A DNA stretch of 64,000 nt from a virus. Location of the stretch: the IMG/VR virus record IMGVR_UViG_3300040786_000066. One strand, given 5' to 3'. Shown piece by piece: positions 1,622 through 36,179 of the stretch (position 1 is its first letter; each line of letters begins with the position of its first letter). The translations under genes were made by a program, and so were the position numbers. The notes under the pieces are model-generated. The model ran no database searches. It was not told where the DNA came from and saw only the letters and a list, made by a program, of their open reading frames with translations.

Positions 1622-1804
1622 ATGAGAGCATTGAACATTATCAGAGGAATTTCGAAGGCTTTGATGTTTGTAGTTTTGTACTTTATCTTGTACAATTACA
1701 CTCAAGGTCTTCAAACCATGGCTATTGGATTCTGCCTAGCCATGGTATTACTAATCAGCATCGTGCTGGTTATCAATTATTATGAAATAAATAAAGAGTT
1801 ATGA
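1622..1804 (+). CDS. small membrane protein
   Basis: 60-aa ORF with two hydrophobic helices, overlapping the next ATG. Confidence 0.6.
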   Translation: MRALNIIRGISKALMFVVLYFILYNYTQGLQTMAIGFCLAMVLLISIVLVINYYEINKEL

Positions 1805-2103
1805 AAAATGTATTGAGATTTATCGGCGTGATAGCTATAATAGTATCACTAAGTAATGTCATCGTATTGGCATTAAAAGGGTATAATGAAAACATTGTAC
1901 TCATTGGAGCATCTGTATTTATCACAGTAGTGGGATTTGTACTCCTTATTGCTGCTGATAATATGCAGATTAGGTTAACAGATAAGCAAATAGCAGATGC
2001 TATTACTAGCTTAGAGAGGCAAAGTCTTAGAGATAAGATGGCTCATTGGGGAGATGAACTCAATGAAGAAGAGATTGAGCGTCTATCTAGAGGAAGGTAT
2101 TAA
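1801..2103 (+). CDS. membrane protein
   Basis: Two N-terminal hydrophobic helices and a charged C-terminus. Confidence 0.65.
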   Translation: MKNVLRFIGVIAIIVSLSNVIVLALKGYNENIVLIGASVFITVVGFVLLIAADNMQIRLTDKQIADAITSLERQSLRDKMAHWGDELNEEEIERLSRGRY

Positions 2104-2548
2104 TCAAATGGTCGGGGATATTCCTCGGCCATTATTTATTAACAAATTAAATCAAGAAGTTATGTGGAGAACAGAATCAAAATTGGCATTAGTTGCAATA
2201 GCACTAATTGTCTTAGGAGGCATATATGGTATGTCAAACAAGAGTAACAATAGAAAGGCAGATGCCATCGCTGTACTCATGGAGAATGGAGAAGTTGATA
2301 GTTACAATAATGTATTGTTCTATACTGCCAATGATGAGCAGATGGATCAAAGAACATTGAGTGCATTGTCCTATCTATCAAGAGGATATGATATGGTTCA
2401 GGTATACAATAAGATGTCTGACTACAATGACAAAGAGTTATGGTCTGCTAATAAGCCAAGTTGGGATACAGTATACCAAACACCTAAGGAGAAGTATATC
2501 AGTATGCTTATAACAGAGAATGCGGCTGGAGGTATCAAGGAAGATTAG
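2054..2548 (+). CDS. membrane-anchored hypothetical protein
   Basis: Single hydrophobic helix (LALVAIALIVLGGIYG). The true start is probably downstream (2107 or 2161). Confidence 0.6.
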   Translation: MNSMKKRLSVYLEEGINQMVGDIPRPLFINKLNQEVMWRTESKLALVAIALIVLGGIYGMSNKSNNRKADAIAVLMENGEVDSYNNVLFYTANDEQMDQRTLSALSYLSRGYDMVQVYNKMSDYNDKELWSANKPSWDTVYQTPKEKYISMLITENAAGGIKED

Positions 2549-2555
2549 AAAAGAT

Positions 2556-2575
2556 GGTTGGGCTTCGGCTCAATC
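2556..2575 (+). terminator. hairpin GGTTGGGC-TTCG-GCTCAATC
   Basis: UUCG stem followed by a T-run, before motif copy 4. Confidence 0.65.
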
Positions 2576-2646
2576 ACCTCTTTTAAAAGGGCAGCTTCGT
2601 GTAGGCTTATCATGTGTTCATGCAACTGTGCATTAAACTTATAATT

Positions 2647-2925
2647 ATGGAAGAGTCTACAAAGAAAATTTTCAAACCAAAGTTCGAATTGGTTCAAGAA
2701 TGTAATGGCCTTGTTTCAATACATTTGGGTAAGCACGCTGCTGCGGCTATACTTCAAGGGACAGAAATCACTGGAACCACCCAGGAAGATCATCAAATGT
2801 TGGTGGTGTGTCGTACAATTCTTAGAGACATTGCCCTTAACGCATTGGGAGTTAGGCCTGAAGAATTGTGCCAGGACAAAGCAAGGAATCTTTTATATAA
2901 TCTATCAGATAGCCTACGTGGTTAA
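2647..2925 (+). CDS. hypothetical protein
   Basis: ORF between motif copy 4 and a terminator; start taken at MEESTKK. Confidence 0.6.
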   Translation: MEESTKKIFKPKFELVQECNGLVSIHLGKHAAAAILQGTEITGTTQEDHQMLVVCRTILRDIALNALGVRPEELCQDKARNLLYNLSDSLRG

Positions 2926-2932
2926 TATTCAA

Positions 2933-2950
2933 ACCTCTCTTCGGAGAGGT
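2933..2950 (+). terminator. hairpin ACCTCTC-TTCG-GAGAGGT
   Basis: Perfect 7-bp UUCG stem before motif copy 5. Confidence 0.65.
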
Positions 2951-3164
2951 ATGTTTATCTCAAGGAAAAGGGCAGCGTCGTTCTGTCTTATCAATTCCTC
3001 GTACTATATCTAAGTAGTACGCAAAACATATAACATGGAAAATACTATTGACTTAAGAAAGACAGGCGCTGAGAACATTATTGGTAAATTCAGTAAAAAC
3101 ATTCTTCTCAACATATTATACCTGTACGTGAGAACGGTTCGTTCATCGTGGAGCAAATATCTAC

Positions 3165-3416
3165 ATGACTGCTCGTCAAGCTGAAACTATTCTCATGCTA
3201 TCTGATTTCTTGGAAAAACGCCCAAGTGGTGATTCTAAGCATTGTGAGGATAGAGAATCAGAGGCTAATGTCATGCGTGAAAACACTGTGTTCGAACTTG
3301 CAATGCTTGTTCGTACTATGGCTAAAGGCGTTGCAGGTGTACCTTCTATGATTTCCATTAAGGACATGTCTATTGGCTACGGCCATGTATGTGATGAGCA
3401 TAATGGCAGATACTAA
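3165..3416 (+). CDS. hypothetical protein
   Basis: 83-aa ORF followed by hairpin AGCCTCTC/GAGGGGCT (3426-3447). Confidence 0.55.
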   Translation: MTARQAETILMLSDFLEKRPSGDSKHCEDRESEANVMRENTVFELAMLVRTMAKGVAGVPSMISIKDMSIGYGHVCDEHNGRY

Positions 3417-3450
3417 AGTATCAAAAGCCTCTCTTGATTGAGGGGCTATA

Positions 3451-3681
3451 CTATATCAGCGTAGAGAATATTTGATATAGTAGCAACAATGCAGGGGTAA
3501 ATGCACACGAGTATATCAGAACAGCGATATACTTGGGCGTGATTGCTGTGGTGCTTAGGCATCGGCGCTGGGTGAAGCCTGCACGTGAGAATTTAGTTTA
3601 TTGTATAGCCCGAGGTAGAAATACCTGTGACAGCATTGACTACAATAAGTGGATTCTCCAAACAACTACGATAAGGTTGTT
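3451..3681 (+). ncRNA. candidate structured RNA (unassigned)
   Basis: Nested helices CGAGTATATC/GATATACTTG, GCAGG/CCTGC, GAGAAT/ATTCTC, TTATTGTA/TACAATAA and AGGTA-GAAA-TACCT. Confidence 0.45.
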
Positions 3682-4628: not shown

Positions 4629-5230
4629 ATGTCAAAATCAAGCACGATTAGTTTAGATGTATTAAATGCATTAAGCCCACAAAAGGAATGTTGAACGCTT
4701 CAGTTAAGGAGCTAGAGAACCAAGTATTCACTTTTCATTCTATAGTTGCACCTGCTGAGAAACTGCGGATCTTACTGCTGTCAGCGATGACAACTCGTAT
4801 GTGAAAGCTCGTTATATCAATTCAAAAACAAAGAAGAGTTTCTTGATCCCAATCAGAGGATTATTGAATCTTGGAATTGTTCAGATGGGTACAACTAAAG
4901 TGAAAGCATTAGACCCTAAAGCAGAAGTTGCAAAGTGAATGATTATTTACTTGAGAAATCAACTGATGGTAAGGAGTGAGTCTTCCAATGTCTTTCTATG
5001 TAGTTTCTGTCAAAGATAGAATCCAAGAAAGCACTGGGAACATTATGTACCCTCCGTACTGCTACCAAGCGTTCTCTGATGAGATTGAGACGCTTAGAGC
5101 GACAGATCCTAAAGCGGATTTGGGTCCTATCTACCAAAATTATGACTTTATGCAGTCATTATATGCTGGAGAAAGATCTGCTCGCTACGCCACTGCGGAA
5201 GCAACTAAAGACATAGTTATCTCAGTTTAA
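4629..5230 (+). CDS. hypothetical protein (indel-split), paralog of 3721-4265
   Basis: MSKSSTISLDVLN... through YPPYCY to the stop at 5230; followed by a terminator at 5260-5300. Confidence 0.55.
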
Positions 5231-5708
5231 TCCCAAAGGATTTAATAATGATACTATTTACTCTCATACCAGACCATGTGTCCGGTGTGGGAGTTCTTTT
5301 GTCCTTTTCAACAATACACCACTAAAAGCACCTGACATTGCACCATTCATCCATAGGTTTATATAACATTACCGTCTTTTCAACAACAAACTACCCATTT
5401 CCTCTTAACAAACTGGATTTATACTCGATATCGAGTGTATTTATCTCCGATTTGTAATAAATAACAGGAAATAAGTGTATTTTGGTTCGTTGATAACAGG
5501 CAAAAGCGATGAGTACAAAAAATTGAATAATAACGTTAAGTATAAAAGGAGATCCTCGATTACTGAAGAAAGTAAGTAAGTCGAATGGGTTAACCCGAGT
5601 AAGAACACAACGATAAAAATATAGTTAATCAGTCCACAGCCTTCCAGGAACAAACACACTTGTTTTCCATAATTATAAGAGTCATTAATCACGTCAGACA
5701 AGACCGCG

Positions 5709-6093
5709 AAGCTTGTTTGACTGGGTTAGTTACTAAAGTACCAATCCCTGGTCGGCGAAGGGAACTGAGGTTAGAAAAACTGCGAAGCAGCAGGCTGAAT
5801 GCAATGTGATGAAGTACAGTAATCATGTTAGTAAGTCTCTCCCGAGTAGATTGAGTATAACGATTTACAATATTAGCCCCGGATATAGGTTGATTACCTT
5901 ACCCTGTATCAGATAGACACGTTTCATCGTCGGGCAATAACAAAAGTCCAGAGTGCACATAGGTATATGAAAATTAAGAACCTACCTGCATTAGATTTAT
6001 TAGAGAATCGTCTGGCAACAATAAGTCCTGAGTGGATTGCATGATACGTCATACAACCTCGAGCTCTTCATAAGTGGAGAGCTTTACAGGCTT
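5709..6093 (+). ncRNA. candidate large (~385 nt) structured RNA, unassigned
   Basis: No credible ORF. Closing helix AAGCTTGT(5709-16)/ACAGGCTT(6086-93). Internal stems GATATAGG/CCTGTATC, AGCTCTTCA/TGGAGAGCT and CTGC-GAA-GCAG. Confidence 0.5.
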
Positions 6094-6104
6094 ATAGAAA
6101 AGTC

Positions 6105-6226
6105 CGGAATTAATCTTGACGCTGATAGTATGTGCACATATAATTTCAGTTGAGGTACGAGAGATAATCATAAATTAAGTTGTACAGCTTGATTCAATGA
6201 AAGGGTTCGATTCCCGAATTTCCGCA
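6105..6226 (+). ncRNA. tRNA-like RNA (acceptor plus T-loop, non-canonical core)
   Basis: CGGAATT pairs with AATTTCCG (one bulge); GGG-TTCGATT-CCC T-arm; no canonical anticodon arm. Confidence 0.4.
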
Positions 6227-6593
6227 TAATATGGAGAACTTCAGAAGAGCTATCCAAGTTTAATAAACCATTTAATAACCAAACCATTATGAAAAGATTT
6301 TGTTTTATTCGTATTGGCTTTCAGTCTGTTTTCCTTTATGGGAGCTAGAGACTATGTGAAGCCTGTTTCAAGTCATGAAGCTGTATTTGTAGGAAGTACT
6401 AACTTTCCCTAAAGATCTACAACGGTACAATCAAAAGCCGAAGTTCCATAAGGAAAGACAAAAGAATTAGAATACTGCAGGCCTCCTTTATAGTTTGGAA
6501 CGAGCCTGAAGTTAGAATTAACATTGTGTATAATATCGTTGCAAGCACAGACTTAAAATCTGGATACTGACAACTATACTATATATAAAATAA

Positions 6594-6652
6594 AAAATAC
6601 CCTTGAGAGGCGAGTGCCGTTTAGGACTCAAGGGTATTTTATTAACATGGGG
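6594..6652 (+). terminator. long hairpin/terminator upstream of the tmRNA locus
   Basis: AAAATACCCTTGAG/CTCAAGGGTATTTT 14-bp inverted repeat. Confidence 0.6.
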
Positions 6653-6708
6653 AGGCAACTAAGCTTTCTAATATTACGAAGCCGTGTAATAATATGCATT
6701 ATAAAAGC

Positions 6709-6791
6709 GGGTAAGTACTCTAGAAAAGGCGTTATTGTTTGTCGCGGTATACAGTCGGCATACAAGATGGGTTCGATTCCCTACCTATCCA
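6709..6791 (+). ncRNA. tRNA-like RNA with Ala-type acceptor (G3:U70, A73)
   Basis: GGGTAAG/CCTATCC acceptor (one mismatch), TTCGATT T-loop, and a long hairpin instead of an anticodon arm. Confidence 0.45.
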
Positions 6792-6792
6792 C

Positions 6793-7062
6793 AAGATTGT
6801 TCATTGACGTATTATGAGTTTTGCAAGACGGGAGTTCGACTCTCCCAACTCCACAAATCGAAGACCGTGTATGTTGTCGATGGTGTAGCTAGCCGATATA
6901 CAAATAGCCGAACTTATGGGGTTGCCTGGTTTTGATTGCAATACACAAGTTTTACTGAGAATAGTCCCAACTATAACTCCAAAAGTTATACAACTTTTAG
7001 TGCAGCTGATTTAGAATTAGCAGCCTAGACGAAACTTGGGGAGCGTCAATCCCCTTATTTTT
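6793..7062 (+). ncRNA. ssrA: circularly permuted (two-piece) tmRNA
   Basis: Acceptor piece first (GACGGGAG-TTCGACT-CTCCC-AACTCC-A, 6827-6853), then a spacer, then the 5' piece GGGGTTGCCTGGTTTTGA at 6918 (G3:U70). P2 TTGCAA/TTGCAA. Tag frame ends ...FSAADLELAA-TAG (7028). Inter-piece pairing TTGACG(6804-09)/CGTCAA(7044-49). Confidence 0.88.
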
Positions 7063-7083
7063 AAACCCTAAATTTATCGATCG

Positions 7084-7425
7084 ATGAAAAACGAAACTCT
7101 AATTAATCCCAAGATTACGAGGACTCGTAATTCTGTGAACGTAAATTGGTTCTCTGTATGTAAAAGTAGCGTTGATAACGTTATTCAAATTACATCAAAA
7201 TCCGAGTTCTTTAACACTCCTCTTGTTTATAAAGTAACAGAGGATTTAATTATACTTAGAAAAGTCACTATACGAGATAACAAAAGAATAGTAGTACCTA
7301 AAAAAGGCCGCGATTCTGAGTTTTATCGCATGAGCATCATAACTAAATTTGAAATCGAAAACAACAGATACGATTTTGAATTTGATGAAGATGATGAGGA
7401 TGTAGTATCTGCTTATTATAAGTAG
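7084..7425 (+). CDS. hypothetical protein
   Basis: Intact 113-aa ORF with an acidic C-terminus inside the ncRNA island. Confidence 0.6.
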   Translation: MKNETLINPKITRTRNSVNVNWFSVCKSSVDNVIQITSKSEFFNTPLVYKVTEDLIILRKVTIRDNKRIVVPKKGRDSEFYRMSIITKFEIENNRYDFEFDEDDEDVVSAYYK

Positions 7426-7459: not shown

Positions 7460-8770
7460 AATAACGGCTTGAGCGAAACGTGGGCCGTGGTTCAAAGAAT
7501 ATACAACACTAGTCCTGGAATTCCTGGCAAGCCTATGAAGATAGGAACTTGGTAGAGGATAGAGGCACGTAATCCTTCATATTGCATCGGTACAAATAAA
7601 CAAAACCGAGCCGCACAACACCGTGATTCTTTTAGATAACGGAATATGATTGACTACAACCGGAGCACGGATTCAAACTAACTGTACTGTGTCGAACAGG
7701 ATGAAATCGATTGATGCTAGCCGTAAGGCAACTAACATCTTGTTGCATTTAAAAGGGACAAGAAATGATAGGGATTCTGCAGGATCCAGCTATTGAATAA
7801 GGGTAAGAATAATATCCCCTTAGAACCTCGCTGACACCAGCCAAGTCAGGAGAACAAATCGGGTGGCATCCCTCTAAGCATAAGGAGAACAACAATGCGC
7901 ATTAGCATAAGGTGTACAACAATGCAAGTACTGTCGGCCAGCCATGTCAGCTTGGACCCAAAGTTGGAGTTGATAACTTTGCCGGCAAGTACTTTAACCA
8001 TGCTGAAAAGCAATTGCAAGGAGACTATTAGGTACGTCTTCCCAGAGTAACGTGTGCCAACACCCTGGGTATCTTAGGTCAAGGATGCAATACTTTTCAT
8101 AAAGTCTATAATCTGCGATAACAGAATGAATACATCAACCGCGCAACAAGGCGAGTTTAGTTTTTAGTATGTGAGCGGTAGACACAACTACACACAACAA
8201 ACAAAGATTGCTACTTAAGCTAGTTTATGAACAGCGACTCTGACTCGGGCATCTAATGTACCGGCTAACCTTACAGAGAAAAGGTGTAATCCCTTGCCAG
8301 TATGATTTTAGGCAAATGCAAACTTCGTCAATGTTCCTTAGCGTTCGGGTATTAAGTATAAGATAGCATAAGCCTAAAAGTTGTTGGCATTAGGGCATCA
8401 AGGGATTGATGTGATGAGCTGTAACGGAACTCAGCAGGCAGGTTCGATTCCTGTTAGCCTCACTATTTTAACAACATCCAACGCTCAAAGGAATTAAGAG
8501 GGCAGGCGTTATAGTGACCCGCCGAGAATGAATGGTCACTGAATTTCTAAGTAGTAATGGTCATCTTAAGATACCTGAGTAGAGTGAGTAGTAAGAGTGG
8601 TGCCTATATGGTATTTCTGAAATGAACGTAGTAGCTCAAAAGGCAGATGGACTCAATAGAGAAGATTATTATTGAATTTGCGTGTTCGTTCAGTCCAGTT
8701 TGCATAGCAGGATCGCGCACGTTAAAACTAAGGTAGGAGCAGTCATCAAGTATGGTGATTGTCTCCCTTT
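7460..8770 (+). ncRNA. giant structured RNA, GOLLD-like, with an embedded tRNA-like element (~8393-8462)
   Basis: About 1.3 kb with no ORF of 60 aa or more on either strand. Many helices, e.g. AAGTACTGTCGGC/GCCGGCAAGTACTT, AAAGTT/AACTTT, CCCAG/CTGGG, AGTGACC/GGTCACT, TGGACT/AGTCCA. Ends in a terminator-like hairpin. The class assignment is from recall only. Confidence 0.55.
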
Positions 8771-12314: not shown

Positions 12315-12485
12315 ATGATAAAATACGAGTACAAAAAAGAGACGTTAATAGAAAGCACGATAGAAAATCGATTAAACGATTTAGGAGGAAAAGGTTGGGA
12401 GCTAGTATTGCTTATGCCAATACCACTTAGAGCCAGCCTTGACGCTTTATTTACAGGATATTTTAAAAGGATCAAAGATTCTTAA
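12315..12485 (+). CDS. DUF4177-like small protein
   Basis: KYEYK...LNDLGGKGWELV motif. Confidence 0.6.
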   Translation: MIKYEYKKETLIESTIENRLNDLGGKGWELVLLMPIPLRASLDALFTGYFKRIKDS

Positions 12486-19284: not shown

Positions 19285-19710
19285 CCATGTCAGGCCATTT
19301 ATCAACAGAAGAGCTTTATTTAAAGCCGAAATAGATGCAATAAGAAGAAAGGATTATGCTTTTCATAGAGTTTTAGAGGCAAACAAAATAAAGTTCAAAA
19401 GAACAGGGGAACCATTGTGCTAGACGGTATGGTGGTATACGAAGATCTTCAAGTTTCTTTCGGCAGTCCCAAGACGTATCAATACAATCTTGAGACACTA
19501 AAAGAAAAGTAAGCTCAAATACAGTATTAAGTATAAAAGCTAAGTTTATAGGTGCAAACAGCCTAGGTTACATAACAGGTTTGAATTACATCTTAAATGT
19601 ACTTCCATCTAGTGGTATAACTATATGCAGAAAAGATGGATCAGGTAAATGCGTTTACCAATCCCTAACAGCTTTTCTTGTAAACTGGGATAGCATAGAA
19701 AAATAACAAG

Positions 19711-19806
19711 CGGGAAACCACAAGATCAAGCTAGCCTATAAACGGGGATGCGTGGGAGGATGATAAATAAACACTGTCTGATAAGGGTTCGAATCCCTTT
19801 TCCCGT
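19711..19806 (+). ncRNA. degenerate tRNA-like RNA
   Basis: CGGGAAA/TTTCCCG acceptor and AAGGG-TTCGAAT-CCCTT T-arm; no canonical D or anticodon arm. Confidence 0.5.
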
Positions 19807-20339
19807 TATTTTAACAACTAAATATATGGCACAAGAAAAGAACGTTGCCTGCATTTGTCCTAGTATTATGATCTACAACGAGTGGGTCAGAGAAAACGCA
19901 GTAAAGGAGAGCAATATATCTGGGTCTATAATGAAGACAAAATCAGAGGACTACGCTTCCATAGACTAGTTAAGTTATTTAAATATTGGACAATAAAAGA
20001 TATAGATAGAATATTGAGGTTTATTATAATAGACCCTCAAGATGTCGAGATTCAATAGTAATCTCATATAATTTAATAAGAACAATATGAAAGCGTATCA
20101 AATAAACATCGCCCCTAGAACTGGAGTCGGTATGGGATTTGTGACTGTTGGAGAAAACGAGAACCACGCTCTTGCAGAGTTCTCAAAGTCTCTTAGGGAT
20201 TCCATCAAGATAATCAACGCCAAAATAGCGTGCGGACCTGAATGTAATATATCAATACACGAAAGCCAAAAGAGCGCAATGTAGAGATCCTTAGAACACT
20301 TAGAAAACCAGGTAGGCTTGCTTTCCAAAAAACGACTTC

Positions 20340-31713: not shown

Positions 31714-31893
31714 GAGGTGATGTAACTGGCAGGCATGCCTGCGGTAATGCAGCAGGTGGTAAGGGCAATAATGAAAGTCATCAGGAATCAGGCCTGATTT
31801 TTAAGGTGATGGACAAGAATGACCCAAAAGTGAAAGCGGCAATTGTACATTACCCGTGAAAGCTCCGTGCAGGTTCGAGTCCTGCTCACCCCA
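31714..31893 (+). ncRNA. expanded tRNA-like RNA (180 nt)
   Basis: GAGGTGA/TCACCCC acceptor, GCAGG-TTCGAGT-CCTGC T-arm, A73, and internal helix GGTAATG/CATTACC. Confidence 0.7.
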
Positions 31894-32151: not shown

Positions 32152-32351
32152 GGCCGGATGGCGTAGAGGCATACGCTAAGGTTATAGGCCTAGAATGGAT
32201 TATCAAAAGCCTATCTGTAAGACAAGTCAGGTAAATAAGCGGCAAGATAGGATAGTCCAGCAAGTTCTGTGAAAATAATAACTATTATCCCTGTAAAGGT
32301 GCTGACTAACACAGAATATAATTCATGCAGGTTCGAATCCTGCTCCGGCCA
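32152..32351 (+). tRNA. tRNA-like gene with a ~130-nt structured variable-region domain (identity uncertain)
   Basis: GGCCGGA/TCCGGCC acceptor, class II-like D arm GCG-TAGAGGCATA-CGC, weak anticodon arm (loop TTATAGG), T-arm GCAGG-TTCGAAT-CCTGC and A73. Confidence 0.75.
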
Positions 32352-36040: not shown

Positions 36041-36179
36041 GGAGGCATAGCTGTTAAGATTGCATTCTAACACAGTAAGTGGGTCGCCGATGAGCTGATA
36101 TTACTGCACAACATGCGCGCTAAAGATGTAAGTGATCAGTTATGTACGCGGCAAGGAGGTTCGATTCCTCCTGTCTCTA
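36041..36179 (+). ncRNA. expanded tRNA-like RNA (139 nt)
   Basis: GGAGGCA/TGTCTCT acceptor, GGAGG-TTCGATT-CCTCC T-arm, A73, and two long hairpins replacing the D and anticodon arms. Confidence 0.72.

Follow-up and report, generated by a model that had tools for sequence, protein, structure and literature searches.

A tRNA-framed RNA of 143 nt directly upstream of a permuted tmRNA in a Bacteroidota-type phage, and its possible part in setting the tmRNA 5′ end

What kind of RNA lies directly upstream of the permuted tmRNA of this phage, and could it take part in making the tmRNA 5′ end? The DNA analysed here (the window) is the whole stretch of 64,000 nucleotides of IMG/VR record IMGVR_UViG_3300040786_000066, a phage-like contig whose genes, among them those for a ligase, a RecT-like protein and a primase, lie almost without exception on one strand. 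The sequencing runs that contain it are ice metagenomes, and the phage is a cold-water one. A sequence-only reading had described positions 6709–6791 as a tRNA mimic of alanine identity, with a long hairpin in place of the anticodon arm, touching the tmRNA with its 3′ end; 3′ processing of the mimic was proposed to generate the tmRNA 5′ end, or else the mimic was taken for a second alanylated, tag-less rescue or decoy RNA. The letters of 6709–6791 are as that reading gave them.

Extent and anatomy of the RNA

ARAGORN, and Rfam at gathering thresholds, detected no tRNA or tmRNA in the window. A relaxed Rfam search yielded a permuted tmRNA at 6796–7028 (RF04321, 40.1 bits, E 1e-5, the gathering score being 47), and the features of the class are present: an acceptor piece upstream of the coding piece, G3:U70, and a tag frame ending in AA and a stop. 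This neighbour is of the kind described by RF04321 (Nawrocki et al. 2025, PMC11915505) and defines the slot discussed below; the available text of that 2025 survey reports 79 phage sequences and three main permuted clades. Its parts are as follows:

6796–6853, + strand: tmRNA acceptor piece, from the RF04321 alignment, with discriminator A6853
6918–7028, + strand: tmRNA coding piece, whose tag frame ends in ...ELAA and a stop
7038–7054: terminator-like hairpin after the coding piece

One C of the acceptor piece, lost in a homopolymer near 6844–6846, is restored in the related strains L028 and L316. The upstream element does adjoin the acceptor piece, as had been claimed, with 4 nt from A6791 to the start of the RF04321 alignment.

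Homopolymer deletions are abundant elsewhere in the window and are filled in by short-read contigs. Positions 6710–6791 are reproduced letter for letter in L031, the remaining long reads show scattered short deletions only, and L028, a strain of the short-read type, has zero indels across 6709–6791. Sequencing error is thus ruled out as the source of the odd shape, since the same letters are found in other long reads and in L028 without an indel.

The element was compared in three sequences (the window, L028 and L316), two of which are ~95% alike; L316 is ~75% identical to the window over the element region. The features delimited in this manner are:

6649–6791, + strand: whole tRNA-framed RNA, 143 nt, from conserved ends and the three-strain model
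6649–6655, + strand: 5′ acceptor strand, pairing with 6784–6790; invariant in the window, L028 and L316
6657–6733, + strand: enlarged D region, 77 nt, with a tentative 3-bp stem around a ~62-nt insert of stacked helices
6709–6717, + strand: 5′ acceptor strand of the sequence-only reading, a look-alike in the window strain only, inside the D-region insert
6735–6765, + strand: long hairpin in the anticodon-arm position, with an 8-nt loop and no canonical 7-nt anticodon loop
6769–6781, + strand: T-arm, with a canonical T-loop and a 3-bp stem of G-C pairs
6784–6794, + strand: 3′ acceptor strand, discriminator A6791 and CAA, read from the sequence and invariant in relatives

The feature noticed at 6709–6791 is therefore real, but its 5′ boundary and its size have to be redrawn: the RNA measures 143 nt rather than 83, since the strand at 6649 is invariant and paired while the strand at 6709 is broken in relatives. 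The first 16 nt (6649–6664) are identical in the window, L028 and L316; the last 31 nt (6766–6796) are identical between the window and L316, against an interior identity of just 63/101. Six of the seven positions of 6649–6655/6784–6790 pair (G1-C72, G2-C71, G3:U70, A5-U68, G6-C67 and G7-C66), and G4.A69 is a mismatch. As there is no covariation in that stem, its pairing was deduced from complementarity and conservation. A second strain, in run X1, matches the window at 6635–6669 and 6761–6794 and diverges between them; it was left out of the count because it may be the same strain as L316.

Might the functional form be the 83-nt RNA at 6709–6791 after all, possibly as a 9/3 allo-tRNA? In the window strain, 6709–6717 pairs with 6782–6790 at 8/9 positions, and a look-alike strand this good turns up in ~2% of interior shuffles. 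In L028 and L316, however, the pairing is lost: 4/7 pairs of the acceptor strand formerly placed at 6709–6715 are broken in relatives, uncompensated. G2-C71 of that strand becomes A.C in L028 and U.C in L316, and G3:U70 becomes U.U in L316, where positions 2, 3 and 7 are broken, the 3′ side carries no compensating change, and identity to the window over 6709–6717 is 5/9. Furthermore, the acceptor stem of an 83-nt form would cross the covarying helix 6665–70/6721–26, its constrained fold is 2.8 kcal/mol worse than that of the 6649 form, and a long variable arm is lacking. We give this form almost no credence, and the uncompensated changes in relatives rule it out.

The 3-bp stem of the D region (6657–59/6731–33) never varies and is tentative. 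Inside it, the insert contains the helices 6665–70/6721–26, 6683–85/6707–09 and 6689–92/6699–6702; the first shows two compensatory changes and one that is wobble-consistent, and the inner two are invariant or changed on one side only. The hairpin said to replace the anticodon arm is borne out, with 5/9 pairs of 6735–6765 compensatory in L316 (z −1.9 when folded alone). A gap of 1–3 nt separates it from the T-arm, whose loop is invariant and in which 49-65 is A.A and 50-64 is U.U (G.U in L028). The 3′ end, CCTATCC-A, is invariant, and CAA follows A6791, so that CCA is not encoded.

Over the whole structure, 91% of cells are paired and 7 pairs are compensatory, versus 0–1 when the partners are slid by 1–3 columns, the structure being derived from the same three sequences that score it; most of the covariation rests on L316, given the likeness of two of the three. 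Neither fold is more stable than its shuffles (z −0.26 for the 83-nt fold, −0.3 to −0.9 for the 143-nt fold). The structure is supported by conservation and covariation; folding energy adds nothing to the case.

Two other folds were discarded. A class II cloverleaf with an Asn-like or Thr-like anticodon, offered by relaxed ARAGORN, depends on the 6709 strand and is incompatible with the hairpin that covaries. The terminal hairpin 6766–72/6783–89 is favoured by energy, but a change in L028 breaks one of its pairs and the T-loop is destroyed; it may be a misfold. Separately, an invariant motif of the D region, CATTATAAA at 6697–6703, is partly complementary to the hairpin loop at 6746–6753; pairing of 6 bp is possible in L316 and of 4 bp in the window, and might conceivably lock the loop, though this is unsupported.

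That the stretch is a small protein gene instead is scarcely believable. A frame at 6614/6646–6817 runs without a stop in both the window and L028, as does its 3′ part in L316. L028, however, lacks the ATG, and L316 has a 1-nt deletion that puts the frame out of register. Changes are even over codon positions (13/10/11), and non-synonymous codons exceed synonymous ones by 17 to 5 in L316 and by 6 to 0 in L028. A coding frame over the element is ruled out, as it leaves no coding signature.

What occupies the slot in other phages

A query made of the tmRNA internal-junction pattern, which takes no account of upstream sequence, gave 45 stretches of viral contigs, most of which were called permuted tmRNA by ARAGORN. 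Merged at 90% identity, and with Panino and the window's clade added, they make up 32 distinct loci of Bacteroidota-type phages. In 14 of these, the host promoter box TAnnTTTG (background ~0.013 per 14-nt window) ends 32–45 nt before the GAC linker of the tmRNA. In 8 others, the discriminator of a tRNA or tRNA-like element lies 35–38 nt upstream of the linker. The remaining 10 show neither, and no locus shows both (0/32; Fisher p 0.007 on lineages). A tRNA T-arm farther up was found within 400 nt in none of the 32. In Flavobacterium the box occupies −12 to −5 relative to the transcription start (PMC9723704), which would place the start of promoter-led RNAs near the conserved GTTCRTTGA motif; cutting behind the discriminator would yield an RNA ~6–8 nt longer.

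The occupants of the slot are diverse. They include an annotated tRNA-Asp in the Maribacter phage Panino, a tRNA-Cys (L068), a tRNA-Ala (L069) and a tRNA with a shortened anticodon arm (L065); in a contig from another ice run, a normal T-arm is found at the same junction (loose end at 6789). Enlarged or irregular mimics without G3:U70 are also found there:

L040, 13565–13710, − strand: mimic in the slot
L066, 170–245: mimic in the slot

Alanine identity is not needed at the slot, as shown by the Asp, Cys and non-Ala occupants in other phages. The recurring feature is a tRNA-shaped 3′ end at a fixed distance. In L040, two candidate 5′ acceptor strands exist, one near and one far, and another tRNA-like element lies at 12317–12420. 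A clade of permuted tmRNAs (L043, L051, L053, L054, L061, L075 and L078) has no host box; immediately upstream, these loci share a conserved TAAGAACTG motif that may be a phage promoter. The part of the tmRNA literature covered describes neither a promoter-or-tRNA alternation upstream of permuted tmRNAs nor an RNA of this architecture.

A model built from the three strains finds strong matches in this element's own family only. Its best non-self match is the tRNA-Ala of Panino (20.4 bits, E 0.036), followed by further weak matches to the slot elements of L040 and L066 and to sister elements in the window; weak as they are, these matches suggest that the tRNA frame probably descended from tRNA-Ala. 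Exact-pattern scans of viral, metagenome and genome collections gave chance matches only, and no further homologues, among the matches listed. Protein-based locus searches in viral contigs found no relatives, and the element is absent from the DNA retrieved for the more distant relatives L318 and L345. In L318, an island of ~2 kb without genes (1650–3500) contains a repeated ACTAGTCC motif that heads several modules; neither a tmRNA nor a copy of the element was found in it.

No canonical tRNA was detected across the whole window. The phage does carry other RNAs built on a tRNA frame:

6105–6227: sister tRNA-framed RNA, with a long D-region hairpin, a second hairpin, a 3-bp T-stem and a non-Ala acceptor
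8386–8462, 19710–19808, 31714–31893, 32152–32351 and 36041–36179: further tRNA-framed RNAs, each with acceptor and T-arm and a rebuilt interior

The sister RNA is present in L028 and absent from L316, and its T-arm (6203–6215) has the same 13 nt as 6769–6781. Given these additional RNAs, the element belongs to a larger group that is still poorly understood.

A reading frame of 41 aa with a hydrophobic N-terminus lies at 6289–6412 of the window, where it is broken solely by homopolymer errors; it is intact in L028 and has a homologous reading frame in L316. A copy with 76% identity is found upstream of a one-piece tmRNA in L345 (868–993 and 1214–1607), an unrelated AT-rich contig that also has a tRNA with a collapsed anticodon arm near 1991–2065. 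The 41-aa frame and the tmRNA may have travelled together.

A proposed processing role and other readings

We take the element for a genuine RNA gene of a Bacteroidota-type phage that is under selection, has a tRNA frame and does not decode; that tRNA-type 3′ processing of it, probably via RNase Z, makes the tmRNA 5′ end seems to us, on sequence evidence, somewhat more credible than not. With tRNA-like processing signals, which are a functional class and not a sequence family, the element shares a tRNA top half ending at the start of its neighbour. RNase Z cleaves CCA-less precursors directly after the discriminator (PMC7479834), from which the cut after 6791 is predicted, and rnz is present in a Bacteroidota species (PMC5581868).

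The following course of events may be proposed. The element keeps the top half of a tRNA (acceptor stem, T-loop, discriminator, no encoded CCA) around a rebuilt interior, and the 143-nt RNA and the permuted tmRNA would be transcribed on one precursor, the element standing where promoter-led relatives would start transcription. To the tRNA-processing enzymes of the host it would look like a pre-tRNA without CCA: RNase P would cut at 6649, and RNase Z, or another 3′ endonuclease, right after A6791. The second cut would free a tmRNA precursor with a defined 5′ end, to be processed at its own tRNA-like junctions; processing at the acceptor 3′ end and at the 5′ end of the coding piece is described in the available text of PMC3985003. 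Neither that text nor the available one of PMC11915505 describes an upstream tRNA as setting the 5′ end of the acceptor piece.

Of the original proposal, the idea that 3′ processing yields the tmRNA 5′ end thus gains comparative backing from slots that hold a promoter or a tRNA end and never both, and the idea that the slot calls for alanine identity is lost. Origin of the transcript is a difficulty for the processing reading, owing to a terminator-like hairpin 8 nt upstream and to the lack of a recognised promoter:

6594–6640, + strand: strong hairpin with a T-run, 8 nt before the RNA 5′ end, in the window and L028

A hairpin of unrelated sequence occupies the same place in L316. Tentatively, the structure is terminator-like or protects the 3′ end of an upstream RNA. 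No TAnnTTTG box was found in 5200–7100 of the window, and no copy of the phage's repeated early motif near the junction of element and tmRNA, so that neither motif reveals a separate tmRNA promoter; transcription must read through the hairpin or start at an unrecognised promoter. Recognition by RNase P or Z could be weakened by the 3-pair T-stem and the G.A mismatch of the acceptor. Finally, a cutting signal alone leaves the kept 62-nt insert and the invariant acceptor letters unaccounted for.

Another explanation is compatible with processing, as a second role: once released and CCA-added, the RNA might be an alanine-accepting or AlaRS-binding mimic kept off the ribosome, acting as a decoy for tRNA-targeting defence toxins or as a modulator of the balance between charged and uncharged tRNA. 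G1-C72, G2-C71, G3:U70 and A73, given earlier as alanine determinants, are indeed there, on the 6649 strand and not on the 6709 strand. None of the 7 acceptor positions changes, against covariation at 7/15 pairs of the two main interior helices; this contrast hints at recognition of the sequence itself, invariance over three sequences being weak evidence. The insert is maintained through compensation, the model's best non-self match is a tRNA-Ala (that of Panino, E 0.036), and the other tRNA-framed RNAs of the phage do not adjoin a tmRNA. Against this, the acceptor-end identity set of bacterial tRNA-Ala comprises A73, G2-C71, G3:U70 and G4-C69 (PMC9976931), and the last of these is G.A in all three strains; in addition, the slot holds non-Ala ends in other phages. 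Alanylation of the element is possible, and a mimic role of this kind is a speculation to which we assign a minor share of probability. A little more doubtful still is the combined view that such RNAs form a class of phage tRNA-framed RNAs not described before, each serving twice: first as punctuation of a polycistronic RNA, then as an alanine-accepting, elongation-incompetent mimic. The 62-nt domain in the D region would then be the binding site of a host or phage protein, the RNA acting, for instance, as a decoy for a tRNA-attacking toxin.

Decay offers a different account, in which a former tRNA-Ala drifts towards a pseudogene and the tmRNA cassette was recombined in at tRNA 3′ ends, with no processing link. 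Mismatches in acceptor and T-stem and a folding energy no better than that of shuffles would fit, as would varied tRNAs at one fixed junction, which tRNA-end recombination also explains. In some gut-phage loci (L052, L055, L081 and L082), moreover, the acceptor piece is replaced upstream of the 3′ strand of the T-stem; these breaks look like recombination or integration at the T-arm. However, the ends of the element are 100% conserved in L316 against a 62% identical interior with compensatory changes, which speaks for purifying selection and not for decay, and the promoter box is never kept in tRNA-led loci. We regard the pseudogene account as improbable, although shared ancestry or recombination at tRNA 3′ ends could explain the fixed 35–38 nt spacing, wholly or in part.

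A second, tag-less rescue RNA was also part of the original proposal; as a tmRNA-like rescue RNA or an SmpB sponge, after the fashion of the TLD-only RNA of mycobacteriophage DS6A, it fares poorly. The Ala-type acceptor ends are similar to those of the neighbouring tmRNA, the 3-nt GAT linker before the T-arm resembles the GAC of tmRNA, and a TLD-only phage RNA does exist (PMC4131195). Yet SmpB binds a short, stemless D-loop (PMC3968760), and the element has a 77-nt structured domain in this region, with a 62-nt helix in place of that loop. Its 5′ strand is not followed by the D-loop motif that tmRNAs conserve and that the neighbouring tmRNA shows, and Rfam tmRNA models match its T-loop only. 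The first two T-stem positions, 49-65 and 50-64, are contacted by EF-Tu, and both are mismatched here. A rescue function is accordingly a very unlikely one.

Comparison with known systems

If the processing reading is correct, a host promoter and tRNA-type cleavage of an upstream tRNA or mimic are interchangeable means by which phages define where a two-piece tmRNA begins, as the distribution in the slot suggests. Punctuation logic of this sort is known mainly from organelles. The element also indicates the extent of remodelling that a tRNA frame can undergo (to 143 nt, without an anticodon and with a 3-bp T-stem) and still be under selection, and genes of this sort are missed altogether by standard annotation tools. 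Were the released RNA charged and a decoy, it would add a new RNA to phage counter-defence.

Signals that set the end of a neighbouring RNA in a comparable manner are the tRNA punctuation of animal mitochondria and the mascRNA of MALAT1. The t-elements of plant mitochondria are likewise degenerate tRNA-like structures beside another RNA, proposed to act in cis as signals for RNase Z or RNase P and thereby to set the neighbour's end (Forner et al. 2007, PMC1920247). All of these are organellar or eukaryotic, whereas the element belongs to a phage, stands before a tmRNA and is enlarged, not reduced; unlike t-elements, it has a promoter or a normal tRNA as its substitute in other phages, and its cleavage is a prediction made here.

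With tRNA-Ala (RF00005) the element shares G1-C72, G2-C71, G3:U70, A73, a canonical T-loop and the lack of an encoded CCA, and the tRNA-Ala of L069, directly upstream of a permuted tmRNA, has the same slot and spacing. It differs in G4.A69, the 3-bp T-stem, the ~62-nt insert, the 8-nt loop on a long hairpin, the lack of an Ala (NGC) anticodon, its 143 nt, and in being missed by ARAGORN and Rfam. The short T-stem is shared with allo-tRNAs of the 8/4 or 9/3 type (Mukai et al. 2017, PMC5389517), and the 12-position branch can be drawn as 9/3. Unlike allo-tRNAs, the element has neither a long variable arm nor a Sec-like D-arm, and pair 8 would be C.A; a 9-bp stem of the allo-tRNA kind exists with the non-conserved 6709 strand only, pairs 4 and 8 being mismatched with 6649. 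The TLD-only tmRNA of DS6A, in the available texts of PMC4131195 and PMC11915505, is likewise a phage RNA with an Ala-type end and no tag. That RNA is little more than a tmRNA TLD, whereas the element has no stemless D-loop and contains a large D-region domain. The element would seem to work like a t-element or a tRNA punctuation signal; by the features compared, it does not belong among the tRNA-Ala, the allo-tRNAs or the TLD-only tmRNAs.
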